A stretch of DNA of 57,174 bases, the filler included, from Sphacelaria rigidula (taxonomy: Eukaryota): NCBI GenBank assembly GCA_964200075.2. It is 6 parts of 6 records of this genome, joined end to end, with 100 filler letters (N's around TTAATTAATTAA, not from the genome) between each part and the next. Parts side by side here need not be neighbours in the genome. Positions count along the whole stretch, not along the records: positions 38,185 to 47,629 come from CAXNAA020008481.1; 5 more parts are not named here. One strand, given 5' to 3'. Below the pieces are notes generated by a model. The model saw only the letters and a program-made list of their open reading frames with translations. It was not told the origin of the DNA and searched no databases. Made by a program: the position numbers and the translations under genes. Below, one piece after another: positions 5,437 through 53,626 of the stretch (positions within the stretch are counted from its first letter, which is position 1; each line of letters opens with the position of its first letter).

Positions 5437-6890
5437 ACGTGCAAGGGGGTATGGGTATTGTCGCAGGTCAAAACGCGGACCGCCTTCCACACGAGAAGAA
5501 GGAACAGCAGCAGTATCAGCAGCATCGTTATTGCCAGCACATGTACGCGGCTGGGGGTGGGTCTAAATCAGCCGGTGCCGATACTGCTGCTGCTGCTGCT
5601 GCTGCTGCCATTCTTACTCATGAGAGAAACGGTCCGCGTTCGTGCTACAACCCCCACGCACCTCGCACGTGATATCCACGGTGCTGGAAAGCGCTGGTCC
5701 GTACTACCCGTCGATCGGTCTATGCTTGCTTACTAGGGTAAGTTTTGGGAGATATAGCTGCGCGCATCTTTGTGTGCCAGCTGTGCACGTCGGGTATGTC
5801 TCGCACGCGTGGGTGCTGCTCTGATGGAAATGAAACCAGCGTCCAATACAGGGGAAATCAAGCGATATGTACTCGTACTGGAAACGCTACTACTGCCGTC
5901 TGTATGGGGGTAACAACAGATCGTAGCCTATTTTAAATAATACCGTACTCGTAGGAGGGGGCAAAAACGCGCCAGGTCATGGGTATTGTCGCACGTCGAA
6001 ACGCGGACCGCCTCCCGCACGAGAAGCAGCACCAGTAGCAGCAGCAGCACCAGTATCTTTGTTGCCAGTAAATGTGTACGGCCAGGGGTGGGTCTGGATC
6101 AGCCGGTGCCGATACTGCCGACTGCTGCTGCCGACTGCTGCTGCCGCCATTTTTCCTCATGCGAGAGACAGTGCGCGTTTCAATCGTGCTACAACGCCCA
6201 CCCACCTGGCGCGTGATAGCTACCATGCCGGAAAGCGCTGATCCGTACTGCCCGCTGATGAGTCAATGCTCTTTCACCAGGCTTGGAGCTAGAAGATTCA
6301 GCTGTGTGCATCTCTCTGTGCGAGCTGTACACATCGGGTGTGTCTCGCACGCGTGGCTTCTGCTGGTGAAGGCGTTGATAGAATATAGCCAGCGTCCAAT
6401 ACAGCGGGAATCAAGTGAAATGTACTTGTACTGAAATGCTACAACAGTATACTGATACAATATCAGGGTAACTACACGCCAGCAGATCATGATCGATTTC
6501 ACGTGGGGAGGCGGAAATAACGCGCCAGGTCGATGAGTATCGTCGCACGTCGAAACGCGGACCACCTTCCGCACGAGAAGCAGCAGCAGCAGAAGCAGCA
6601 TCTTCATTGCCAGGATATGTGTACGGTTGGGGGTGGTTTTGAATCAGCTGGTACCGATGCTGCTGCTGCTGCTCTTCATCGTAGACGGTCCGCGTTTCGA
6701 CCGTGCGACAACAGCCACGCACCTCGCGAGTGATGGCCACTGTGCTAGGCAGCGGTGGTACGTACTACCCGCCAATGGGTCCATGCTTGCTTACTCGACA
6801 ATTTTCTGGCGGGGAAAGCTGGGCGCATCTCTCCGGGGGAGTTGTGCACGTGGAGTGTATCTGTCTCCCACGCGTGGCTACTGCTGGTGA
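5437..6890. repeat. Degenerate tandem array, 3 x ~530-555 bp, each unit containing a ~210-250 nt inverted repeat
   Basis: ATGRGTATYGTCGCA(C/G)GTCRAAACGCGGACC at 5450, 5979 and 6533. In each unit the CAG-rich arm is complementary to the CTG-rich arm. Confidence 0.85.
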
Positions 6891-9446: not shown

Positions 9447-9546
9447 NNNNNNNNNNNNNNNNNNNNNNNNNNNNNNNNNNNNNNNNNNNNTTAATTAATT
9501 AANNNNNNNNNNNNNNNNNNNNNNNNNNNNNNNNNNNNNNNNNNNN
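9447..9546. other. Artificial contig linker
   Basis: N44-TTAATTAATTAA-N44; stops in all six frames. Confidence 0.98.
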
Positions 9547-18992: not shown

Positions 18993-19092
18993 NNNNNNNN
19001 NNNNNNNNNNNNNNNNNNNNNNNNNNNNNNNNNNNNTTAATTAATTAANNNNNNNNNNNNNNNNNNNNNNNNNNNNNNNNNNNNNNNNNNNN
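18993..19092. other. Artificial contig linker
   Basis: N44-TTAATTAATTAA-N44. Confidence 0.98.
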
Positions 19093-19930: not shown

Positions 19931-22727
19931 GAGGCTCGCAAGCTGTTCGACAAGCTCAAGGGACTACTGTCACAGGACGCACCCGCAGAATGCGCCGTCT
20001 GGTGAGTGGAAGAAAGACGATCCAAACGGCCACAAGCTGCCCCCTATGCAGTGAAATTATTAGGTACGAGAGTAGTGACACCAACTTCCTCCACCTCCCC
20101 CCCGCCCCGCCCTGCCCTGCCCTGCCCTTACTTTTCGTGTTTGACCCGCCACTACCTCCATCTTTATACCCAGAAACTTAAACCCACGAGATGACAAATT
20201 TTCCGTTTCCCTTCTCTTCCAGAAAAAACAGCAAATTCAATCCTCAAGATCATGAATTTTCCCTTCCTCTTCTCTTCTTTCTCGGCTCTGTATATGTACA
20301 CTCGCTCCTTGTCGCAATCGTATAATCCGGGGAGGGGCGTACTGATATTTCGCTTGCCTCCGTCATTTGACCATTGGCCACGCGTCCTCCTTTCGAGACG
20401 GAGCCCATCCCGGGGGGTGGGCGGAGGGGGGTGTGCTCATGATATGGCAGGCCGTAATCATATGACCATTGACCTCGCATCCCTACAAAGCTGGGACGGA
20501 ACATACCTGGTGTTTGCCAGACCGGGCTCGAAATGGATCACCAAGCGCGAAGCGCCGTGATGTGTTCGGCGAGCCGCATGAGGGGTGCGCTGCATCCCCC
20601 TGAGATTGTTCGGCCCGAAGCGTACTGATTGTCTTGCATGCGGATGACGGCCTCCAGTGAGTTGGTTCATTTTCTCGTATCGTCGCTTCTAGAGACGGCG
20701 ACGGGTTCCACACTGCCCCATGGGTGTCTAAACTTGCAAACACTTAACACTACGTAGCATGATCGTCCTCTTCGGTCATAATTGAGGTTTTCCGCCCCGC
20801 AAAATTGATCTCGCTCGAGCCTCCGGGGGGGAGGGGGGGCGGGGGGGTACTGATTTGTTGCTCGCCTTAGTCATATAACCATTGAAACATCCGGGAGCGG
20901 GATCGTCAGGGCACCGTTTTCCGTATCTGTGCATTGGCTGTCCATATGCCAATCAGCATCTGATGTGTGCAATCGTCTCTGCCCGATCGACGTTCACCAT
21001 TTTCATGTGCTCGTATTTTTGTTTTTCACCAAGACCCGTGTCAGTCATCTTGTCGCGGGTAACCGTTTCTGTTCGTTCAACATTTTTCATTCGATTTGCC
21101 CGTTTTTGTTCTGTTGCTGTCCTTACGCAGCCTGGAGCCGGTCGAACCGGCAGACGCTCGGGTTTTGCGCGGCTGCGGGCACGGCTTCTGCTACAAGGTA
21201 AGTTAACTTCTCTGTGGAAGACTACCAAATCGCATGTGAAAACACGCTCATCCTGTTGTCGCAATTGAGCCTCCCCTCCTTTGTCACTTCCCACCCTAGC
21301 CAAGCAGATTGTGTTGTTATTATCGAGTCAGCATCGCGCGTTTGATTGGGAAATATTTGATCCCTGATGCCTGATACCCTAAGCATACCGCGACTCGTCC
21401 GTAATAGTTATTTTCAAAATTTCGCGTTTTGGCGACATATCTGGGTCCATATCATGTAATTCACCTTACCAAGCACCCCTCCCCCCCTACTCCCTTGGAG
21501 GGTCGGCGTTGGTTGGCTAGGCAAATAAATAGTTTACCTTTTTTTTCCTCACTTGCGTTTTTTTTTTGCGGTAACCATGATGGTGAAGTTAGATCATGTT
21601 GAGCAGGGTGGAGAACCGGAACTCCGCGCAAAGGAGATGATCGTACTACGTAGTGTTGAAATGGTGAGACACCCAGGAGGCAGTGTATAAGTCGTGGCTG
21701 TCTCTGAATGTGGCGATACCAGAAAGTGAAGCAACTCATTGTTGGCTGTCATCTACATGCAAGATAATCAGTAGGCTTCGGGCCGAATAATCTCAGCAGG
21801 ATGCAGCTCACCCTCCATGTCACTCGCCGAACGCATCACGGCGCTTCGTGCTTGGTGATTGATTGAGGTCCTGGTCCGGCGAAAACCCGGCGTGCTCCGT
21901 CCCAGCTTTGTAGATGTGTGAAGTCAATGGCCACATGGCTACGGCATGCAAGATCAAAATTACACTCCCTCCCGCCCCCCCTCTGTGTGGATCTCCCCTT
22001 GAGGGTTGGCATCGGTTGACAACGACGCTGTAAAACACGCCACTCACTGCGTAAGCTAGTCAACCAGGTTCCCATTTTGTTTTCGCTTGCGTTTTTTTAC
22101 GGTAACCATGACGGTCTAGATAAATCGTTTTGTGCGGGGTGGAAAACCCGAATCCGCGCAAAGAGAATCAGCGTGCAACGTAGTGTATGAATGTTGAGGC
22201 ACCTATGAGGTAGTGTAAGCCGCCGCTGTCTCTGGCAGTGGTGATACCGGCAACTGAAGCAACTCGGTGTAGGCTATCATCCACATGCAATATAATCAGT
22301 ACGCTTAGGACCGAACAACGGAGGATGCAGCTCAACTTTCATGCGACTCGCCGTACTCATCACGGCGCTTCGCGCTTCGCGGTTGAGTGCGAGCCTGGTC
22401 CGGCGAAAACCCGGCTGCTCCGTCCTGGCTTTGTAGGGGGTGCAAGGTCAATGTTCATATGACTACGGCATGCAAGATTTTGAGTACACCCCGCCCTCCT
22501 GCGTTGACGTGATATTACGTACCACTCGACTGCTGCGGTACCAAACAACACGCCATCAACCTCAGGCGTCAGGTTGCGATTCCCTCGCTTCCCCTCACTT
22601 CCCCTCGAAAGTTGTTTTTTATTGACCTAAACAGCGCAACCGTCGGACCGTCCGTGCGCCTCCTGCGGGTCCCCTCAACCCAACCCAACTTAAAGACCGT
22701 CCCACCTCAAGACTACATCAACAAATT

Positions 22728-26829: not shown

Positions 26830-27139
26830 CTATGGTGAGATACCCATGAGGCAGTGTAAAAGCTATGGCTGTCACTGGAAGTGGCGACACCAGATAATAA
26901 AAGCAACTCATTGTAGGCTATCATCCAAATGCAAGATAGATAATCAGTAGGCTTCGGGCCAAACAATCTCAGCAGGATGCAGCTCACCCTTCATGCGACT
27001 CGCCGAACACACCACGGCGCTTCGCGCTTGGTGGTTCGAGTGCAAGCCTGGCCCGGCGAAAACCCGCGTCGCGGCATTGTAGGGATGCGAGGTCAATGGT
27101 CTTATGACTATGGCATGCATGATCATGAGTACACCCCCC
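26830..27139 (-). repeat. Family L repeat copy
   Basis: Same blocks as the 21480-22500 copies, ending ATGAGTACACCCCCC. Confidence 0.8.
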
Positions 27140-28538: not shown

Positions 28539-28638
28539 NNNNNNNNNNNNNNNNNNNNNNNNNNNNNNNNNNNNNNNNNNNNTTAATTAATTAANNNNNN
28601 NNNNNNNNNNNNNNNNNNNNNNNNNNNNNNNNNNNNNN
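28539..28638. other. Artificial contig linker
   Basis: N44-TTAATTAATTAA-N44. Confidence 0.98.
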
Positions 28639-37754: not shown

Positions 37755-38084
37755 CCCCTATGGGGCTGGCGTCGGTTGGCGATGACGGTGTAAAACACGC
37801 CGCTCATGTCGTAAGCTAGGCAACCAGGTTACCGTTTTGTTTTTGCGTGCTTGCGTTTTTTTGCGGTAAATATGATGATGGTCCAGCTAGGTCATGTTGC
37901 GCGGGGTGGGAGAATTTCAATTCCGCACAGAGGGGGTGATCGTGCTATGTATTCTTGACATGGTGAAGCATCGATGAGGCAGTGTAGCCCGTGGCTTCGG
38001 GCCGAACAACCTTAGCCGGATGCAGCTCACCCCTCATGTGTCTCGCCGAACACACCACGACGCTTCGCGCTTGGTGATTGAGTG
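37755..38084 (-). repeat. Family L repeat copy, truncated by contig end
   Basis: Matches the 21995-22400 copy (TGTAAAACACGCC..CGTAAGCTAG..AACCAGGTT...GGATGCAGCTCACCC). Confidence 0.8.
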
Positions 38085-38184
38085 NNNNNNNNNNNNNNNN
38101 NNNNNNNNNNNNNNNNNNNNNNNNNNNNTTAATTAATTAANNNNNNNNNNNNNNNNNNNNNNNNNNNNNNNNNNNNNNNNNNNN
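38085..38184. other. Artificial contig linker
   Basis: N44-TTAATTAATTAA-N44. Confidence 0.98.
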
Positions 38185-39585
38185 CGGACGAGCGTGCTGG
38201 AATCCTCGTGAAAAAAAGAGCAAATCTTTCCCGAGGGGGAAAATCCGCCAAGGCCCGTATTCCGCCGATAATTCGAAGTGAAAGGTTGAAAAAAGACAGT
38301 TCTCGCACCGATTTGTTTTTCAGTCTAAAAGAAGCAGCCTAACCTCCTCGTGGAAAAAAACGAATAAGTGGGCTTCGCTACTGTACTTGTGCGTCCTTTC
38401 GTGGAGGAAATCCTGGTGCAATTGCGGCCAAACCTTTCAGAAATTTGGCGCAGCATCCAACTTTTCGTGTGGCACGACTGCACTCATTGAATCCAAGCGC
38501 TGCAGTTGACTCGAATTCCGGAGATCATCACTTCGACTCCCGACGGATGACCTTTTTTTGTTCCGTCGGTTAGGTGATGCATTATGCAGTACATTTATTC
38601 AATCTTTTTCATTCAGCGGCGGCCCGGTGCGTTACCAACTGTGTCGGCAGGTCATACCGATATGCTCAACGCCGTCGGATTTCGAAAACTAGATAGCTGA
38701 CGGTGCCAATAGCTTACGGGATTTACTGCTCGCCCAGCTCGTAGCACTATTATTTTGTTCATCCGTATCATTTTGCGTCAGACAGGGAGATAGGGGGGTA
38801 TTGACGGCTTCTAATGGCTTCCTGTACTCGTGGGAATAAAAACTCGAGGATACATTGTCTTTTTCTGGTGGTAGCAGATTTCTGTTTTTAACGCATACAC
38901 TCTTCTGCAAAGATGATCAATTCCGGTGGAACAATCCGCGTCATTTTTCCGGTAGTCGCAGATTTGTTTCCACTTTACCACCACTTTTGGTGAACAACAG
39001 TCGACACGAGATGATAACTGTCGTAGATTCCTTCACCTGACCACCACTTTATTCTAAACTCGACTGACGTTCGTAGTTATTAGACGAACGTACAACCCCG
39101 GCGAGACAAACAAGGTACAACCACCTGGATACGCTTATGTGACGTGATGGATTTTCCAACCATGAACGCAAGGCAAACGGAGGGGGCAACATCCGCCCAG
39201 TCATCCCTTGCGCCCAAAACGATGAAGGAAAATAAAAACAGTCGTTCAATCTGTTGCTTTCGCCATAATGAACGTTTTGCATGAAACCTTGCGAAGATCG
39301 ACACGATGTGTGGTGCGTAAGACACGTGGTGGCACGACCCGCCGTGCCGGTGCAGATGGTACAGTATCGACGACATCGGCGGCAGTGTGGCGAAGAAGAC
39401 CACCCCATGTTTTTCATCTGACTGTTCAACAAAATAGTGATACGGATGATTCCAGGCAGTTGTGTCCTTGCACGAACGCCATAGCGTCGAGACGCGAGCG
39501 TTGGCAGTGCTGCACGGAAAAACAAAAGGTTGACTTGCATACGATGGTGTTGTTCAGGTCAGTCGTGTGCGGTTGAAACACTCAC

Positions 39586-40197
39586 TTCATTGGCGGGCGT
39601 AGCCAGATCACCTCCAAAACAGTTTTGCACCCCGCTGTGCACCGCTGATGCACGGACCATGATCGCCATGTACCTGAGACACGGTTCGTGACTACAGCCT
39701 GGAAAAAAACATCCTCTACTTGTACATAACCGTTTGCGCAATCTATCTACAGGAAAGAACGGCCCCAAAAATCTCCCCAGACTGAAATCAGAACGCGAAA
39801 TCCTCCCCATTGTCGTCGCCCGCTTCTGATGCCGAGTCCTCTCTCTCGGACCCGCTGCATTCTGAATCACTGACCACTCGCCCGTGCTGGGGGGTGCCAC
39901 TGATGCGGTATCGGCTGTGGACTCCGTTCGGCTATCGCCCGCCGCCGCTGGTTCTGCGCAGCCAGTAGGGGATGATCCAATGCTGACGGCGGCCGATGCT
40001 CCAGCGGCAGGGCCGCCTGTTGCCTCGGCGTCCCCGGCGCCCCCGGCGCCCGCCGGTGTTCTTTCGCCGTCTGCGGTGGGCACGAAATGCGCTGGTCCAG
40101 TTTCTCGGAAGTCTACCGGTCCCGTGCCGGCGTGAAAGACGTAGAACATGGGTGCATCGAGGCCCGCGATGCCATGCGTCGCCTCCCACGAACAATC
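39586..40197 (-). pseudogene. In-frame continuation of the Academ-like gene beyond a single TAG
   Basis: ORF 39559..40149 is in the same frame as ORF 40198..41202. They are separated only by TAG at 40198-40200 (KCRG*DCSWE). Strong donor GAA|gtgagt at 39585. Confidence 0.55.
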
Positions 40198-43100
40198 CTA
40201 TCCACGACACTTTAACTGCTCGGCAACTATGGGATCGAAAAGCGGACGGGCCGGCGATCGCAATGGTTGCCGAGGCGTGATGACGACGTTTATCGGCCCC
40301 GCAGGACCCGGGGCCACTGGGGTGTAAGAAGCAGATGCCAGGTAATCACCAAAAGGATGTGCGACCATCTGCTCATTCTGCATGGGCGGTGCGGGGGTGG
40401 AGCGCGCACGTTGTACTCCAGGGAGGGCGTTCGGCGGAGTAGGAACTCCTCCCGCGGCGTCATGCAGCGGGGCGGCTGATGCCGCGGGGTTCGCCACTGG
40501 CACTGTGGCGGCAGCCGCAGCTTCAGTAGCCGACCTCGCTGCAGCCCCGGGATTGGTGTCCTTCACACCGGTTCCACGCTCGGAGTAGTACATGCCCACG
40601 ATTTTGTCCCACATGGCTTCGAAGAACTCGCAGATTGTGTGGTGTGCAACACGGTAGTTGCTAGCCTCCGACGATTTCCTCCCGTCGAGCCCAAGCGCCT
40701 CTGCTACATATTCTATCCCCGCCCCCCCAAATCGCTTCATGATTGCCTTCACCATGTGATACAGGAGATGCCAGTCAGCCACGTATATCCGGAGCCATTG
40801 GTATTCGCGGGGGTTACTCCGAATGAGGTGGTACATAAACCGAAACGACTCCTCGTCACCGGCAACCATACACGCCGCAGGCGCGCCCCTTTCACCCACG
40901 CGACGTATGTCAGCAATGCGGTCAATCGCGGCTTTCGAGTCGGCCCAGCTCTTCGTGCTCCCCAGCTGCATGAAAAGGTACTTAAACACCTGGGGCTCCC
41001 GCTCCATCGTAGGTATTGCCTGCCTCGCAAATTGGACGGAGCGGCGGAGAGAGGGCTGATGAGGTCGCTGTTGCACAGTGTTGCATATTTTCAAATCACA
41101 ATTTGAACCCCGCCCCTGTGGGGATAGTATCCACCGAGTGAAGGGATCACACCGTAATTTCGCTGCTGCAACCCACGCACACGGGCATATTGCGTAGGAC
41201 AATCATTCCCGCGCAACTCGCGCGATGCTGCCGAAATTAGTGCTGCATCTAATGTTGTTACGTGAGGTGAAGGCGATAGTGTGATCCCTCGGTGGGGGCA
41301 GCAATATGGCATCCACAGGGAAATTTAACCCTCCCTACTCCCGCGGAATCGATGGCGGGTACTGTGTGTTGATCGGCGGGACTCCACGACTGCGGGGGTG
41401 CAAAGCTGGTGCTGACACGCGAGAGACGACGCTAGAGGTAAGTGGCGGTACACCCAACCGCCGCCGGCGGAGAAAAAGAATTCGACTTAGCACAGGCGTT
41501 CAAACGCAGAATACAGGTCAGGCACAGATAACTCATCTCACCTGTCGAAGTTCGAGTTCCAAGTAAGTGTCGATGGAGCCACCCCCGCCCGCGATCCTTC
41601 CCACGGCGCATCGAAAAGCTGCTTCGTCGAAGACGGAGAGGTACTTATCCCATCGCTCACCATCCATGTGCCAGTGTGGTCCCATCGTCACATCCGCGGC
41701 CACGAGCTGATCTTGCTTGCGATGGTCCCGCACGAGAGACAGGTCACCACACGGGGTTTCTACAGCCACGCAAGTGGCAGCCACAGCACACACATGCACA
41801 TCCCCCTCGGTAACAGCCATCGTGGTCCGAAAATCGCAGTTGTCCCAAGGGATCGCAGCAGCTCTTAACGCCACGGCCAACAGATGTTTGTCTAACCTCA
41901 ACTTCACGAAGTACTGCTCGCGTTTGTATCGCATAGACTCGGTCATGCAGAAGCCGTGGGCGGCGATGTAATCTATCACCGCGACGGGTGTGCCGTGCGT
42001 TTTCAACACCTGCGCCAAACTGAAGTCGTGCATCGCCCTGAATTTCCGACCTAGAACAGTTTTGAGGAGATTTTGTACCAGCATATAAAGCCTCCCAAGC
42101 TGCCTCTTTCTCTCCCTCTCCTTCTTCCGCAAAGCCTTCTCCTCCTTTGTCGATCTGTGAATCGTTGCGCTGGCACTCGACTCCCCCATAGCGCTCGTAC
42201 TTGACACACCCGTGATTATTGTTCTCGCGTTACCCCCGCCCGCGAGCCCCGACCCGGGGTCATCAGCCGGTACCGCCACATGGCACATACTGTCAACCAA
42301 GTCCAACAGTGTCGACGGTGTATCATGCTCCAGGAAATCCTTCACAGGTCTGATTTTTCTCTCCAAGTCGGCAGCATATTTTTCACTCGCTTTCCCCGAC
42401 ACATGATGCAGTTCAGACGCACCTTCGATATCCATCCTGATGATAGATCCGGTCGCTCTCACCAACGCCCGTTTCTCCTCCGCGGACCCTTCAGCTGTGA
42501 CGCGCTTGAGCGCGGACACGAGTGGCGGACCGTTGTGGAGCTGGGCGTCCAGGAGAGAGACCGTACGTTCGAGTTCTTGTACCCTGGCACGCATAGTTAT
42601 AAGATCGATATCAAGTGCCATGGCCACGTCGGGCGCCACCGCCGAAGGCAGCAGATACACGGACTTCCGTCGGCCACCACCTGCGGCCTCCCCACCCCCG
42701 CTGACCTCTTCCATCTTGGCGTAGGCTGTGCCGCCCCTCACCACCGCGCCGCAAATTGCCATAGCCTGATCCCGGTTGCGCCGGTCACCGACATCCCGGG
42801 CCCGTGCGGCCTCCCTAGCTTCTGTCAGCCACGATTGAACCTCCCCCAGCCTCACTATTCGCCCAGCCTCAAGGTTCGCTATTACTCTCCCGCGTACTTC
42901 TACGACGAAGTCCGGATCGGCAGGGGTAGGATCAGGAGTGAGGTCTACCGTTGGAGGTGTGGAACAACGCGCACGAGTGGACTTGGTATTTTTCCTATCG
43001 CTGTTGCGTCTGTATCGCTCGAAGGAGGACATGAACCAATCATTCCGCTCACACAAGCAATCGGAACTAGGTCGGTAGCTCCGTAGAAGCACCGCGGGAC

Positions 43101-44709
43101 GCGCGCTGGTGCCATCGACACACTGCAGGAATACTTCCGCGCCTGCAACCCGCGTAGGACCGAGATGTAGCCAGGTTTTTCCTTCGCCAGGCCCCGGTCG
43201 ATGGCAAGCCACGCATTTCCGCGATGCTGGGTCGTGCGTTTGACCACAAGATGGGCACATATACCACTGGCCTTCGATGAGGGGGTACTTGATGCCGCAT
43301 TCATCGCGACCACAGGCCCGCTTCGGTCGTCCACGACGGCTGCTCCCACTGACGGGTTTCGAGTGAGCCTGTGCCGACTGCTCCGTCACACAGCTACCAC
43401 GGTTTTCGGGATGCCCCTGTGCACCACTGCGTCGCGCCGTTACCCTCGTTCGTTCACCGTGCCGTCGACGCCTACCACATCGACCGTTGGCGGGTGAGGT
43501 TTGCTTTCTCCGATTCCTCATGACATGCCTACTAGCCCCAGTCGTGGGCATGGACGTAACCCACTCATCTTCACACCCCGCCGCAGATGTGCTGCCGCCG
43601 TCTGGACACCTTCCCGGGGCGAGGTCAGGCGTAGCAGCACTAGCTGCCCCTTTTTTATTTTTCCGCTTCGATCTTGATCTGGAAGCGTTGGAGGGTGTTG
43701 GTTTTGAGGAGTACGGCGAGCCGGGTCGCTTGTTGCGGTGTCCCGAGGGTGTTAAAAAGTCGTCCGGCGACCCGAGTAGAGGTTCCAGTGATGCGTTGCA
43801 TGGGGAAGCGGGTGTCGTAGCCACCTCAGGAGAATGCAATGCCTTGAGCGCGTGTTCCTTTGCTCGATCCCTGTGCTGAAATGCAGCCTCCTGCTGCTCA
43901 GCCCATGTCCACCATGCGCTACTCACAACTGGGTGGTTGATCATGTTTCTCTTCCGTCTTGACGCCGAGACGTGGGCATGCGAAGGCGTGCCTCTACCAG
44001 ACCCAGGCGGAGCACGTCGTTTGTTTGTCTTCGAAGGTGGAGTAGAAGTCCCCACCTCACAGGGTATCCCGCCGGTAGTCTCTCGGCCTTCGCGAGTTGG
44101 GGTGCCCACTTCGTGGCAGATCGTCGTCGGCGCAGTGGATGCCGATAGCTCCCGCGAGTTCACCTCCGCCGCGCAGGTACTAGAGACTGTGTGCGTAGTG
44201 CGTTTCCTGGGCGTTTGACTCTCTACTCTTACACTCTGCGAGCTTCGCCGCTCGTCGCCCTCATCCAACACCCCTTCGGTTTGCATGGGTACACCATCGA
44301 CCACCGCGCCAGGCGCCCCAGAGTCATAGAAAAGAGTGATCGCCCTGTGCTTTCCATACGATTGGGGACTGGGCTCATCTCCTACTGCGGATTCGTCGCC
44401 GAGGTGGCCGCCAGCAATAGCCCTTATAGTTGACATCGGCACTGCGGATTCCACGCCTGTCGGCCGACAACTTCTGTCAACCACAGTTGTGGCATGTGCC
44501 GGGTGCGATGACAGCAGACGGCACGCATTTTTTTCACCACCTGCCCGCACGACATGCAACAAAGCGTATGTCTGCAAGAACTGAGTTCTGTGCAATGTTT
44601 GACGTTTCAACAGTCGGAGTGCGGAGTTATCGCGCACACGTGTATATACAAGTATATATACTACCCACGCATGCTCACGCCCTACGTTTGGTTCGAAACC
44701 CTCGGTCAT
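40198..44709 (-). CDS. Large Academ/DUF6589-like DDE transposase; exon 44709(or 44436)-41542, intron 41541-41020, exon 41019-40198
   Basis: The 1059-aa ORF ends CAG|gtgaga and joins in phase to cag|GCA. Motifs in order: Cys clusters (CGRDEC, CPSC, CVAC, DCLC); LAQVLKTHG...IAAHGFC; WDNCDF (Asp 1); YLFMQLGS; MVAGDEESF (Asp 2); YQWLRIYVADWH; AGIEYVAEALG; SNYRVAHH...FFEAMW. This matches the Academ-type DNxD / GD / (G)DWH pattern as recalled. Confidence 0.75.
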
Positions 44710-45356
44710 CACCTAAAAGAGACAAATGAGGCGCGTGCGATCATCACCTTTGATAGCTCGCAGGGTTCCTACAACAGTCATTTGAAAATGCTCTCACCTC
44801 GGGATCGGTCCTGGTGTCGAATGTGACGGTCGGACTGCCCCAGACAGCGTCTCAGCAGGCGCCCGGACGTTGCATCCCATGAGTTAGCCCTGGGTATCCT
44901 CCACATCTGCCGCCGGTGTATGTACAGGGGGGGGTGGTCGGGTGGGGAGTATAACACCAACACTTATGTTCGAGTGTGTCATCTACCCTACCATTCTCAT
45001 GTTGTCGCCTCCTGTGGCGACGGAGGTATGTGTTCTCTGTCGTATGTAGCGGTCGCGGCGTTCTTTCGTTATACCGAAGTAAAATTACACGTGAAAAGTC
45101 TAAATCTATGTCCATGTCAACGCCGGAAATCTCGATCCACGCTAGACGTTAGGTACTTGATTCCGGGTGTCAAGTCACGAACTTCAACTCCTTCTTCTGC
45201 TCGGGACAGGCCAGACACTACGTGTGACTTGAACGTTCGCACATGTACAACGCGAGCCGTCTATTTATCACAGCCCCGCTGTTTTCAGGAAGTGATGTAG
45301 ATGCGTCTTAATCACATTGCTATATACACACTTGCACTACATGTTTTTTTTCAAAC

Positions 45357-45780
45357 AGGCAATTTTATGAAATGAGGCCGTGCGATGAAATGAGGTTCAA
45401 GCCCAACACAGGCCTTGCCCCACACTTTCAGCGCCGGTGCCCGATGACGTTTTGCCGGCCGAATGCCCTCCGATCGCGTAGATACTTCTTCTGCGCATTT
45501 TACGTACTCTGTGGGCTTGCAGCGTTGACCGACACCATCGCTGCCCCTGATATCACCCCCCCCCCTCCCCCCCTCCGCTCAAAAAACAAGGTAAATGACG
45601 GTTTCGGTCAGCGCTGCAAGCCCACACAGTACGTAAAATGCGCACAGGAAGTATCTAGGCGATCGGAGGGCATTAGGCCGACAAAAAAGTCATCGGGCAC
45701 CATCGCTGAAAGTGTGGAGCAAGGACTGTGTTGGGCTTGAACCTCATGTCATCGCACGACCTCATTTTATAGAGTTGCCT
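45357..45780. mobile_element. Foldback MITE with ~180-bp TIRs
   Basis: AGGCAATTTTATGAAATGAGG...GCTTGCAGCGTTGACCGA (45357-45533) is the reverse complement of TCGGTCAGCGCTGCAAGC...CCTCATTTTATAGAGTTGCCT (45604-45780), with a ~60-nt loop containing a C-tract. Confidence 0.9.
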
Positions 45781-45844
45781 ATTCTTGCTGTGAACGCCCT
45801 TCATCACAAAGCTATTGCTGTATACCTCGCCGCAAGCACAATGC

Positions 45845-45910
45845 TCTGTACTGCACTGTACTTCACTGTGCTGTATTGCACTGTACTATGCTGAACTGTA
45901 CTGTGGTGTG
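45845..45910 (+). repeat. Degenerate 5-mer (CTGTA/CTGTG) simple repeat
   Basis: Seen directly. Confidence 0.75.
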
Positions 45911-47629
45911 CTCTATGTTGCTGATACTTCGTATGTGCTGCTGGTGCAGTACAAAGGAGTCCAGATGGTCCGTGTACTGATGCGGAAAGAAGGTTTGTAC
46001 TTTTCAAACTTCAGTCGCGTCGTTTCATCCACGGCATGGATAGATTTCGACACAACCTCTTCCTATGGAAAGATTAAACTCTCTAGATGGTGAAAACACC
46101 CTCCTAGTATCTGCCGATGGCCTCGTGCGAACGCCGTGCTCTGCCATGTCATCAGAGGTGAGGTTTGACGGGGGGGGGGGTGTTCGCCCTAGACTGCACG
46201 GATTCTGCAAAAGCTCCAACCAGACAGCACCATTATCGGTGCAACTTGCGAGAGGAACTACTTGTCAGTATATAAACACACCTCGATCGTCTTTGAGACC
46301 ACTCCTTCCACTTGGCCGATGCTTTCAGGTCCGCAGCTGCATGCACAAGGTGTGCGGAGCCTCGGGGCGAAATCAGGACATTTGCCATCATCCACCGTTT
46401 CTCGCGGAGGCGTCTATTTCGCTAAAAAAAAAAATTCCCCGGCGTAACACTGAGACTGTTCGAAGGCCCACAACTCCACAATCAATCCTCGTACAGACCT
46501 GTACAGCAGCATTTAGGGGACCGTATATGACAGGATCCTTAGGATAGAGCCATCGTCGAACCCTGGGATGTGCCCAATGCAGATAAAGTCCAACAATAGA
46601 TAGCCTGTACGCGAGGGGATGAAAATAACTCCAATTCTGATCTGAAATAATTGTTTCTTTTCTTTTGGCGCAGGACTACTGTGCATCATCTATCACCCCG
46701 GTCACCGCCATTTTTTCACATATGAAGAAAAAAAAGTTTTTTCTTCTTGAAAAAACGCCTCGCTCGGGAACAAAGGATATGACTCTAGCAGGAGTCATAC
46801 CCTTTGATGCAGACGGGAAACAGCAGCAGGGGCTAACAGGAGCACCAGTGAGCATCCCTAACAACTTCTAAGGAAACTGAAGGTGCATGTTTCTCTCTCA
46901 CACGTTGCGTCTGGTTTTGTGTCAGCGTTTGTCTCATAGCCCTTTGGAGGTGGTACGCGCGTTTGAGATAGTAAACGACACGATGTACTGTTGTGCTGTA
47001 CGCGAGGAAATGACGATGGTCCGCCCCAAAGGCTATGATTCTAGCAGCTAGAGTCATACCCTTTGGTCCGCCCTCATGGTTTTCGTTTCTTTTTCACCAC
47101 TAGGTGTGTCAAGTGCTTGCTCCATTTTGGCCCGTAGTTTCAGGCTCACGCCCAACAGATAGAGGGATGTGTTGTCGTCCCATTTATTCTGGACGCCGGT
47201 CTACACCTTTCGGTATATGTGGGCGCATCAGCCGGGGTCACACAGGAGAAAAGTCAACACGGGAGCTTTTTTTCTTTTCTCTTTTTTTTTTGTTTTTGTT
47301 TTTAGCATAACTCAAAATTAATTATAATAATAATGTATGTGTGAATCCCAGCTATGCGAACCCAACATACCAACAGGTCCTGTCCATAGGAAACTTCCAC
47401 TCACGAGGAATGTTCCTCGACTGTCGGCTTGTCCGATCCCAAAGATCTCGAACTATCTGTCTGTGTGCCTTGGAAGCCACGGAGCTACGGATACGCTCCA
47501 GGCTTGAACCCAACACACACAACACCGCCAATCTCCCATACTGTGAGCTTGACTGTATACCACACCACAAGCATATTCTATAAGCTTGACTGGTTTGTGG
47601 CCTGTCTGTCATCCGAGACAAGGTGCGAG

Positions 47630-47729
47630 NNNNNNNNNNNNNNNNNNNNNNNNNNNNNNNNNNNNNNNNNNNNTTAATTAATTAANNNNNNNNNNNNNNN
47701 NNNNNNNNNNNNNNNNNNNNNNNNNNNNN
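47630..47729. other. Artificial contig linker
   Basis: N44-TTAATTAATTAA-N44. Confidence 0.98.
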
Positions 47730-48099
47730 ACGAGGGGACGAGAGGGGGGGGGGGCGGGGGGGGGGGGCGTACTCATTTTTTGCTTGCGTTAGTCATTTGA
47801 CCATTGACCACGCATCCCTTTCGAGAAGGCAGGAGCAGGAGGGGGGGGAGGAGGACATTTCCCGACTTGTACATTTTGTGCTCCGAAAGAGAGAGATGAG
47901 GAATTGGGTCAGCGCATCGCCGCAAGGTGCTCTGGTCTTATACCCCAGACTAGTTGTGAGGGAAGGAGGCTCACGAACCAGGTACAGGGGACCGGGTACA
48001 GGGAGGCGTGACATCTAGGAGGGGCTGCATCGCCCGTTGATCGGCGACGTCGTCACCACCTGTTTCAACGGGATCGTCTACATCGCCAAGGTGGATATA

Positions 48100-50700: not shown

Positions 50701-51079
50701 TAACGCAAGCAGGACGCTTCACTTTTGTGCGTTCACAACTCAGGGGAGGGAGGCGGCGTCATGCCCTAGGTGGCAATACACCTTGCCCAAACGAGGGGTG
50801 TGTGAACACAGAAGAGAGGCACCCACATTGCTCCCGAAATGATTCAACATACGATGACAATAATTTCCGTTGCCCCCGGAATAATTCAACGATGACAATA
50901 ATTCCTCAGGGGCCGATGTCGAACCACTGTTTTTTATGGGCCCCAACGTCAAAATGCCCAGATGACCAACATGAAAGCAAACCACGGGATATTTTCAGTG
51001 TGTATAAAAAGGAAAATTTTCATATTCTGTGCACACAGGAGTAGTGCGACACTACAGTCGAAGTTTGCTGTAGACTCAC

Positions 51080-53626
51080 CTTTATCCGTTTACGGTCGAT
51101 CGCCATGCCGTTAATAGCTGCAGTAGCCGCCGCAGCTGCCTCGTTCGTCGTGAACTTCACAAAACCGTAGCCCATGCTCTTCCCCGTCGAACGATCATAG
51201 ACGACTTTCACGTGCGCCAAGTCACCGTGGACGGCGAACATGTTCTTCATCATTTTCGGGGGGGCGAAAGCAAACGCACACGGGGGCAAACATGAAATTA
51301 ACACAAAAAGCACGAAACTCGGAGGTATCTGTGCAGTCATGATGTTCCACGAAATCGAAATGTTTGATGAAGGGAGGTAGGGGGGTACGCTGTATCTTTC
51401 AAACAAAATATACATGGGACCTGTACTCTTTCCTCTTGTGGCATGAACGTCAAAATTTTTGCGAGTTTCTTCCTTAAGTATGTTGCTCAAGTTTTCATCA
51501 TCGCTGCAATGAGACCAAGGTACTGTACGGTAGTACGTGACGATCCAGACATTGGACTAATATTGTGCGGTAACTGTACACCTCTCATGGAAACAAGAGG
51601 CAAAAGCACTGCGGCACTCGGGATCTGGACGTGGGGTAAGAACAAAATATCTTCTCTAATTGTGACGTCTCCTGGTCCCCATTACCATACATACGAACCG
51701 CCCACGCTGGTAAAACCCAAACTTCCACAAAATTCATGTGTTCTTCAGGGGAGTACCTCATCGACTGCGCGTGTTCACATTGCCGGTACATCGGGGAACA
51801 TTTTGGCAAAAGCCTGGCCATCACAACAAGCTGATGATGCGTGCAGTTTTGCAGAGTGCCCTGCCTAACCGCTCATGTTGTATCATCCGGGCTACTCATG
51901 TTGGACTGTTGGTCCCCGGTGAGAAATAGTCTCGAATAGAATTGTGCGTACGGAAACGTGTAAGGATTCACTGTCATCATATCATCAGATGATTATCGAC
52001 AGCGAGAGCAACCTCGGATCTACATGCGTGCAAGCACGAACACCTCTTCCATTTGCGTTAGGCGTACATTTGTGCAGCCGGAATTCATGTCCTCTATGAT
52101 GCTATACACCGAGAGGGTTGCCTGAGACGATTCCTTTCGTACACCAAAATTTATGTTCTGGGAAAACAGATGCCATTTTGGTCGCTTGGTACTTCTTCAG
52201 GCGTGTTCATGATAGGACAGAGAAAACCTGAGGACGTAATGTAGACTCAAAGACTCACCCGTAACTCGATCTCCGTTACATGTGAAGGGAGATAATTAAT
52301 GATGAGGTTGTTTTGACTCGGTTGTGCGGCGGCGGCCGCGGCATCTGTCCCCTCTCCACCCTGCCGATCCATTGCGAGCGAGACACGAGGAGACGAAGTT
52401 TGGTCGACGTGTGTTGAAAGAAGGACAAACAAGCACAAAGGTGGGGGGGACGGGAGGGATATAAGGAGGGGGGCTCTTGGAGGCTCTTGGAGTGCCGCTA
52501 CCGTCCAGAGGACTGGTGTCAAATACTCAATCTCGTGGTGTATGTGAAACATAACAGAAACATGGCAAATACAAACATGGTGGTGGCCACTGGTACAGTC
52601 TCATAGAGGGGGACCCAGCGGTCTTTGCGGGTAGATTCATCAGTGGCGTTTGTGGAAAAGACACGGACGATAGACACAGACGGTGGTTTTCTCGATGGGA
52701 CAGGACAAATGGGATGGCAACAATGAGCAATCAATCCCGGGAAAGAGTGTGGGAAGAGATAAAAGGATTCTGCACACATTGAGGGAACGCCAATGGCGTC
52801 AGTATGAGAAAAAGGTGCGAAACCTGATGTGCAGGAGCGTTTTGTTACACAGGAAACGGGAGGACATTTGCAGAGAAGACAATCCTCTCATGCTATTTTT
52901 GTGTGGTACGAACTATCGTGTGAGCTCCTGTGCACTGGATTCCCTCCATTTCGGTGCATGGATGTTTACATGAAGGGAGCTCCACCTCGCCTCGAAAATC
53001 GTAGCAAACTCTCCTTACCCTTGCGAAATGTCGGGGAAAGAGCAACGATCTCGAGCTCTCGAGCTTGTTCGGTCACATTTGTGCACGACTACGTACGACG
53101 CTCAACATGCTCCCTCACACCCTGGACCCTCACACCTCGTCAACACGTGCATGGCGCAAATCCACGAGCGAGGATCCTCAATGTTTTCGCATGTGCACCA
53201 TGAGGCTCACCGTCGGTTCGTGCATTTCGCCGTGAACCTACAAAAAATCTGTCGCTTGAATCACCACACACATGGCGCGCAGACACAAAACACATTCAAC
53301 GCAAAACACACCTCTGCGGCTGCAGCGTTGCCATCTTTTGGTTCATTGCTGCCCTCGCCACACGGCGCGTCCCCCGGTCCTTCACTCACGGGCTCTGGCG
53401 GTACGACGGCCGCAGCCGTAGTACTTGTGAGCGGCTCTACCTTCGCGACTGTTTCGCCCTCGGCGGAAGAAACAGCAGCAGTCTTGCTCGCGTCCTCAAT
53501 CTCCTTGTTCGGCTCGGCAGCTGTGATCGCAGATCGAGCAGTCGCTGGATATCCGGATGTCGTCGTGCTAGTGCTAGGCACGGTCGCGGCTGGGGCTGGA
53601 GACAGCTGAGCAACGACGGTCGTCAT
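51080..53626 (-). CDS. ELAV/Sex-lethal-like RRM RNA-binding protein, 3'-partial; exons 53626-53312, 52360-52259, 51244-51080
   Basis: NLIINYLP (RNP2)...ELR|NMFAVHGDLAHVKVVYDRSTGKSMGYGFVKF (RNP1)...AINGMAIDRKRIK; phase-0 GT-AG junctions; low-complexity Ala/Thr/Glu first exon. Confidence 0.9.

Follow-up and report, generated by a model that had tools for sequence, protein, structure and literature searches.

A decayed transposon copy, probably of AcademX type, in the genome of the brown alga Sphacelaria rigidula

What is the giant gene at 39586-44709 in this stretch of Sphacelaria rigidula DNA, and can it still do the work for which it was built? The window, the whole stretch of 57,174 nucleotides analysed here, consists of six unrelated contigs of ~9.4 kb joined by N spacers, and the focal stretch, 38185-47629, is contig CAXNAA020008481.1. 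From the sequence alone, an earlier note had proposed at this locus an Academ/DUF6589-like transposase gene, belonging to a divergent Academ lineage or derived from one. Our analysis indicates that the segment is very probably a decayed copy, no longer autonomous, of a brown-algal cut-and-paste DNA transposon of the AcademX type. Background on AcademX, a lineage of the Academ superfamily, is given in the accessible passages of PMC10045372 and PMC4455052.

One broken copy of a repeated element

The segment belongs to a family of more than 100 copies. In the genome, which is assembled in 27,214 contigs, a 1.7-kb query from the transposase core, with 40 of 89 candidates scored, had at least 63 matches on at least 39 contigs, 69-100% identical to it. 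The nuclease exon of sister copies had at least 133 (115 of 531 candidates scored), and the 3' subterminal region at least 43 (40 of 949). Homology between the window copy and its sisters stops sharply at 46452, where a terminal inverted repeat (TIR) of 13-16 bp begins with CAGTG. In ten sisters such TIRs occur at both ends, and patterns built on the two ends matched the genome 68 and 31 times, with no match for the reversed controls. Further inside, an ACGC motif is found at position 35-48 in nearly all A ends (32 of 34), but at 41-56 in fewer than half of the B ends (10 of 23). Only one end lies on the window's contig: in sister L141, which is 96% identical, the other terminus is found 1385 nt past the point matching 38185, so that in the window copy it is placed ~1.4 kb beyond the contig end. 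The element thus measures ~9.65 kb as it stands and, as estimated through L141, ~14 kb before its deletion. A chance inverted repeat on either side of the ORF, at 39717-39742 and 44629-44654, was rejected as the TIR, since homology among copies continues to 46452.

The ten two-ended copies were tested for target-site duplications (TSDs) of up to 10 bp; four additional end pairings, loose pattern matches inside elements, were left out of the counts. The TSD was 4 bp long in five copies (L030, L126, L128, L129 and L149), and none of the ten had one longer than 5 bp, as would be typical of the 9-10 bp of AcademH. As far as the accessible passages of PMC10045372 go, AcademX, with a nuclease, makes TSDs of 3 or 4 bp and AcademH, with a helicase, of 9 or 10 bp, so that the 4-bp TSD fits AcademX. 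The earlier note had proposed that copy number, TIRs, TSDs and partner genes be examined, and the sisters supplied the last three: CAGTG ends, a mostly 4-bp TSD and an XPG-like partner domain.

In the window copy, the features read as follows, all on the minus strand and in the order of transcription:

38185-46452, internally deleted AcademX-type copy; homology to sisters stops sharply at 46452
46437-46452, CAGTG-starting TIR of 13-16 bp, on the gene's 5' side; two-ended sisters show the motif at each end
46282-46400, 5' exon near the terminus, its upstream limit only approximate; three RNA-like runs have contigs with the joint 44906/46282
44907-46281, intron 1, 1375 nt; CT..AC joint in RNA-like contigs
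44798-44906, small exon with an in-frame ATG at 44906, the presumed start of a 1309-aa open frame; RNA-like joints
44541-44797, intron 2, 257 nt; joint 44537/44795, CT..AC after a +3 shift of the cut, in three RNA-like runs
41542-44540, long exon of 2999 nt, with a basic N-terminus of low complexity, the Cys cluster and the beginning of the transposase core; open frame and RNA-like joints
43036-43320, Cys-rich cluster, putatively binding zinc and DNA
41830-41847, WDNCDF, predicted first catalytic Asp motif; equivalent motif in the RNase H-like model of homologue P0011
41020-41541, intron 3, 522 nt, GT-AG, phase 0; skipped in three runs and in gene model P0157
40201-41019, exon with AGDEESF, ADWH and SNYRVAHH, then a low-complexity insertion; motifs and an Academ-like profile (E 7e-20)
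40843-40863, AGDEESF (second Asp); 40768-40782, ADWH; 40639-40662, SNYRVAHH
40198-40200, premature TAG stop; sister L021 has Glu there and is open for 817 codons
40108-40212, EsV-1-7-like cysteine motif inside the transposase insertion, broken by the stop and the loss of one Cys
39869-39880, junction of a deletion that removed 4.0-4.3 kb with the third catalytic motif, the nuclease and the CXC cluster, from alignment to sisters
39788-39868, remnant of the acidic C-terminal tail with its stop; matches the end of sister open reading frame (ORF) P0155
38185-39787, 3' subterminal region common to many family copies

Much of the gene as first described is present. The motifs WDNCDF, AGDEESF, WLRIYVADWH and SNYRVAHH..FFEAMW all occur in the order claimed, and two long exons are indeed spliced in phase: one open frame of 1059 codons (41533-44712) and a second of 334 codons (40198-41202) share a frame, and the intron between their exons is absent from contigs of runs X1-X3, with 255 letters on either side, as it is from sister model P0157. 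It is not skipped in run X7. Other details changed. The uninterrupted exon of ~3.2 kb corresponds to a real open frame, but RNA-like contigs, if read at face value, cut the exon itself to 2999 nt; the Met proposed as the start, at 44709, then falls within an intron, and the ATG at 44906 takes its place. A protein of more than 1300 aa was read correctly in that the model gives 1329 aa, although the gene is incomplete, having a premature TAG and a deletion. Instead of several CxxC clusters, only one Cys cluster of ~95 aa was found (CGRDEC, CPSC, CVAC, CLC). In Pfam it had weak Zn-ribbon matches only (E about 0.55), and its ratio of non-synonymous to synonymous rates (dN/dS) against three 85%-identical sisters is 0.26-0.36.

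Runs X1-X3 all come from one study and none is recorded as RNA; their RNA nature is a guess, and the claim of transcription therefore rests on the GT-AG joints. At introns 1 and 2 the joints are deep but short-sided (32-61 letters), and they probably derive from sister copies. Over 721 nt, the contig spliced at intron 3 departs from the window by 14 letters and 2 gaps, so that splicing is demonstrated for the family and not for the window copy.

The window copy is damaged at several points. Its alignment to the four closest sisters ends at 39874-39890 and picks up in the last 26 codons of the protein, and the missing part, measured on two sisters, is 4.0 and 4.3 kb. Lost with it are the nuclease, the CXC cluster and the motif LDERQEMANR, which is present in 5 of 38 sisters. 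With the third motif and the nuclease gone, the window copy is incapable of catalysing transposition. In addition, its GxxH motif reads ADWH, with A where all 15 sisters in which the motif is readable, out of 38 surveyed (five spurious pattern matches excluded), have G. Over 993 codons, the window copy and L021 are separated by 28 synonymous and 65 non-synonymous differences (by segment, dN/dS is 0.46-1.76), whereas the core shows a dN/dS of 0.12-0.36 when the window is compared with three 85%-identical sisters, which are not independent of one another. By these ratios, the family protein evolved under selection, and the window copy has drifted since then. The window copy is a non-autonomous, decayed, ordinary broken copy. 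Copies with both ends measure 3.7-7.8 kb and are internally deleted, which suggests that they are moved in trans, and the window copy could still be so moved, provided its off-contig end is intact.

Could the damage be an artefact of assembly, the collapse of a repeat hiding a complete locus? With more than 100 copies in so fragmented an assembly, and no aligned contig listed across the junction, the idea has some appeal. But internal deletions with other breakpoints are common in the family, the junction holds 12 filler letters, and the point defects exist independently of it. We regard an artefact as highly improbable.

Another reading would see in the window copy a host gene that arose by domestication, or a truncated repressor that was retained, whose 1309-aa protein binds the ends without catalysis. 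Truncated repressors are known for the P element, in its KP derivatives. None of 39 copies has a longer open frame in the long exon than the window copy, and close relatives of it are spliced in RNA-like contigs. However, its divergence from the closest sister is near-neutral, the G to A change is private to it, its EsV motif is broken, and its TIR is still present. Its deletion junction occurs in none of 26 sisters read past 39868, and RNA-like loose ends at 39868 run on into undeleted sequence; the differences in the spliced contig likewise leave its origin in the window copy not established. Domestication or retention as a repressor is therefore very unlikely, and the suggestion of a gene derived from Academ is not borne out, the window copy being one of many, decaying, and still carrying a transposon end.

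Several other elements are nested in, or derived from, the family. Part of an inverted-repeat element lies at 38185-38343, inside the 3' subterminal region, and a palindromic element resembling a miniature inverted-repeat transposable element, common to many family copies, lies in intron 1 at about 45353-45783; over 45496-45776 of it, contig depth in run X7 reaches about 720,000. In intron 2, at the same TA-rich site (window ~44640), L025:3910-6180 and L028:5190-7673 carry an insertion of 2.3-2.5 kb, possibly a nested TA-targeting transposon. A young non-autonomous subfamily (L062, L064, L065, L067, L068, L070 and L081), 90-93% identical to the window, has its C-terminal tail joined directly to its N-terminal region (39868/43762), and RNA-like depth peaks over the parts which that subfamily keeps. 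Long open frames in single exons occur at L023:5800-6300, L035:7227-8384 and in L040, and none of those examined is complete over all exons.

A transposase with a nuclease, probably fused to it

The anatomy of the full-length protein and element was assembled from several sister copies. Along the spliced gene of the family, the exons encode in turn a Cys-rich N-terminus, a DDE transposase with a helical insertion, a 5'-nuclease domain, a CXC cluster and an acidic tail. DUF6589, which we take to be the Academ transposase domain, is common among the relatives: a phmmer search with the 817-codon sister ORF gave 466 proteins, and of the 29 longer ones, among 150 listed, that were put through Pfam, 28 matched DUF6589, 23 of them above the cut-off of 27 bits (46 bits for the close homologue P0005). 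A profile built from 14 long homologues recovered the sister core (E 3e-25 and 6e-32), the window exon (7e-20) and the sister nuclease-CXC exon (9e-9). Long reference homologues, P0085, P0124 and P0126 among them, hold the transposase, the nuclease motifs and the CXC tail in one chain. Together with the partner domain, the TIRs and the TSDs seen in sisters, these matches support the divergent brown-algal Academ lineage that had been proposed.

An RNase H fold had been named as a structural check, and the model of homologue P0011 (predicted local distance difference test, pLDDT, 75.5) does resemble DDE transposases and integrases, which fill the top 23 rows of a wide structural search. The best Z scores were 9.5 for Tn5 (root mean square deviation, rmsd, 5.6; 196 residues aligned) and for the P element (rmsd 5.2; 340 aligned), 9.4 for ASV integrase and 9.3 for Hermes. 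The counterpart of WDNCDF in this model lies at the end of the strand 199-207, and an Atlas structure neighbour is DUF6589 (template modelling scores 0.59/0.73). The family thus has an RNase H-fold D-D-E core with GxxH before a helical insertion; the window copy is without the Glu region and reads AxxH. In two distant Academ homologues, P0121 and P0136, the transposase ORF includes an OTU-like protease domain.

The nuclease part is read from the sisters. Their downstream exons P0156 and P0155 match P0167 (E 6e-9 and 1e-80), and in the model of P0167 (pLDDT 64.9) the top 17 structural rows are 5'-nucleases: Exo1 (Z 13.2, rmsd 4.0, 266 aligned), Xrn1 (Z 13.1), XPG (Z 12.1, rmsd 4.1, 234 aligned) and FEN1 (Z 12.0). 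The acidic motifs GEGE, SDTD and GCD are retained in sisters. The alignment of P0155 with P0085 (E 4e-7) runs through the CXC cluster of the latter, and P0155 itself has no TCR match in Pfam; a C-terminal Cys-rich (CXC) cluster is a trait of AcademX. Gene models P0157 and P0163 would place nuclease and transposase in one protein, the latter, from Ectocarpus, having the motifs of both in a single chain. Pfam scans of sister ORFs gave no helicase, and no genome-wide helicase search was made. More distant nuclease exons at C16536:1345-2364, C20591:5094-6113 and C10112:1803-2795, with 39-43% identity and open frames of up to 926 codons, point to what may be further Academ families in this genome.

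Some results weigh against the assignment. The window's own ORFs have no DUF6589 match in Pfam, so that the profile check suggested in the earlier note succeeded only in part, through a 97%-identical sister whose 817-codon ORF matches with E 1e-4 and 21.6 bits, under the cut-off. The fold models are those of the homologues P0011 and P0167 and not of the window protein, and for the former Foldseek returned nothing at E<=0.001 (Transib, Hermes and RAG top the list). The Glu of LDERQEMANR is a candidate third catalytic residue only. Neither nuclease exon has a Pfam match, BLASTP of the N-half nuclease exon against reference P0149 found no similarity, and for the nuclease fold XRN exoribonucleases score as well as XPG/FEN1. 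Four of the ten two-ended copies (L119, L130, L150 and C975, the last pairing L142 with L148) have no TSD and one, L127, has a TSD of 5 bp. Finally, no complete autonomous copy was found among the family stretches examined, in an assembly that is fragmented.

It may then be asked whether the family stands apart from AcademX proper, as a DDE superfamily of its own or a deep third lineage within Academ, with an XRN-like nuclease in place of an XPG-like one. The best Foldseek nuclease matches of P0167 are Rat1/Xrn2 (E 7e-8), the second Asp motif is GDEE where reference homologues have GD[QGF], and brown-algal rows form their own long-branched group. That group, however, comes from a quick unrooted tree of 48 rows without AcademH rows, in which all eight named brown-algal rows fall into a group of 24 (Shimodaira-Hasegawa-like approximate likelihood ratio test 97), its other 16 rows being unlabelled. 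Moreover, the domain order and the motif chain (GxE, SDTD, GCD, GW, CXC) match the reference homologues, and the TSD length agrees with AcademX. We consider a separate superfamily or a third lineage very unlikely.

If the family is of AcademX type, one may picture its movement as follows. The full protein would bind both CAGTG ends, probably through its Cys-rich parts. Its D-D-E site (WDNCD, GDE and the Glu in LDERQEMANR), following DDE chemistry, would excise the element and carry out strand transfer into the target with a stagger of 4 bp. The fused FEN1/XPG-type nuclease would probably trim flaps or overhangs at the ends or gaps, which is the less secure part of this scheme.

An EsV-1-7-like motif in the catalytic insertion

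After the GxxH helix, copies in this genome have a low-complexity insertion of 793-813 nt (265-271 codons) with one EsV-1-7-like motif. Three sisters match PF19114 over its full 35 positions (E 1.4e-4, 2.5e-4 and 0.018), all at 15-22 bits and under the cut-off of 25 bits. Between subfamilies, the motif is 54-63% identical and the insertion as a whole 41%; the dN/dS of the motif is 0.17-0.32 (34 codons). Capture of EsV-1-7 by a transposase has a precedent, since the domain is reported, in the accessible part of PMC12477816, in a Tc1/mariner transposase of Ectocarpus.

Other observations count against a working motif. In each subfamily one sister has lost a Cys from it, homologues from Ectocarpales lack the insertion, and NCBI sister model P0157 splices the whole insertion out. 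This splice is unlikely, as the insertion length is divisible by three in 5 of 7 copies spanning it, the frame is open in 4 of 7, and the GT donor is missing in two distant copies. Contigs of X1-X3 have no cover over 39876-40437, motif included, and such a gap in contigs proves nothing. With somewhat less than even confidence, one may speculate that an old, undescribed AcademX lineage of brown algae, present in at least Sphacelariales and Ectocarpales and the first in stramenopiles, captured in its Sphacelaria branch a working EsV-1-7 zinc-finger-like motif within the catalytic insertion, and that this is still transcribed and spliced. If so, the family would be a second, independent EsV-1-7-carrying transposase beside TcMar-2_Ec32 of Ectocarpus, and this would hint that EsV-1-7 proteins, whose expansion in brown algae is unexplained, were carried by DNA transposons, the motif perhaps binding DNA or chromatin.

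Surroundings, relatives and known systems

The rest of the window has little to do with the element. The unrelated contigs are separated by 100-nt N spacers, all identical and with a linker that puts a stop in every frame, at 9447-9546, 18993-19092, 28539-28638, 38085-38184 and 47630-47729, so that apparent neighbourhoods across them are artificial; the contrast once drawn with short host exons in the window falls away, such exons sitting on other, unrelated contigs. Among 19 other ORFs the only Pfam match is an exon for an RNA recognition motif (RRM_1) at 51020-51556 (minus strand, E 3e-12), on another contig. An unclassified dispersed repeat of a few hundred bases (families D6, D8, D10, D11 and D16) occurs in both orientations on several contigs, at 20400-21996, 21762-22492, 26938-27137, 37909-38079 and 47742-47829, and a tandem repeat at 5451-6881 has three copies of a unit of ~530 nt, 70-85% alike.

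A protein that is identical, over the region searched, to the ORF of the 97%-identical sister is labelled Sphacelaria rigidula, as is a second sister ORF, in agreement with the brown alga suspected in the earlier note. Named homologues of the core, at 39-49% identity, come from Pylaiella littoralis, Scytosiphon promiscuus, Ectocarpus sp. 4 and Ectocarpus sp. CCAP 1310/34, and the nearest Atlas structure clusters are mostly from arthropods, cnidarians and basidiomycetes. The Academ superfamily and AcademX are reportedly described in the work of Kapitonov and Jurka (2010) and Kojima (2020). The family is probably the first recognised Academ in brown algae, an extension of the known range, which otherwise takes in animals, fungi and one red alga. 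No brown-algal Academ was found in the literature searched, which included the curated Ectocarpus library but not Repbase or Dfam. The word is absent from the text, Table 1 and supplements of PMC12477816 as far as they were searched, and from the accessible passages of bioRxiv 10.1101/2024.02.19.579948, whose supplements, possibly relevant, were not covered.

Academ is poorly studied, and brown-algal repeat libraries have lacked this superfamily; the gap is filled by a family of more than 100 copies whose ends are defined, whose TSD is 4 bp and whose introns have RNA support, with relatives in four genera of brown algae. In its light, gene models labelled 'unnamed protein', P0157-P0165 among them, can be understood as pieces of a transposon. 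The family also provides a distant outgroup on which the proposed link between nuclease partner and short TSD can be tested. The EsV-1-7-like motif, in turn, offers a handle on the role of an expanded brown-algal domain.

How does the family compare with systems already known? With AcademX it shares a DUF6589-type DDE transposase with a nuclease and not a helicase, a short TSD, TIRs and a C-terminal CXC cluster as in P0085, P0124 and P0126. It differs in its stramenopile host, GDEE at the second Asp, at least three introns, a length of ~14 kb, the 265-271-codon low-complexity insertion with its EsV-1-7-like motif, and a score below the Pfam DUF6589 cut-off. With AcademH it has the transposase family in common (DUF6589 clusters, mostly of Basidiomycota, are among the Atlas structure neighbours), but its TSD is 4 bp and not 9-10 bp, and its partner is a fused 5'-nuclease. 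As far as the accessible part of PMC12477816 tells, TcMar-2_Ec32 of Ectocarpus is likewise a brown-algal transposase with an acquired EsV-1-7 domain, yet it is a Tc1/mariner element with a TA duplication and an N-terminal motif, whereas the motif of the Sphacelaria family lies inside the Academ catalytic insertion. Two further Ectocarpus Tc1/mariner families in the same source, Sagan-1 and TcMar-1, also have CAGTG termini, but with TA TSDs. The P element, Hermes (hAT), Transib/RAG1 and Tn5 also have the RNase H fold, interrupted by a large insertion after the second Asp and before the Glu, with an identity of only 8-10%, and to our knowledge none of their transposases has a fused 5'-nuclease.

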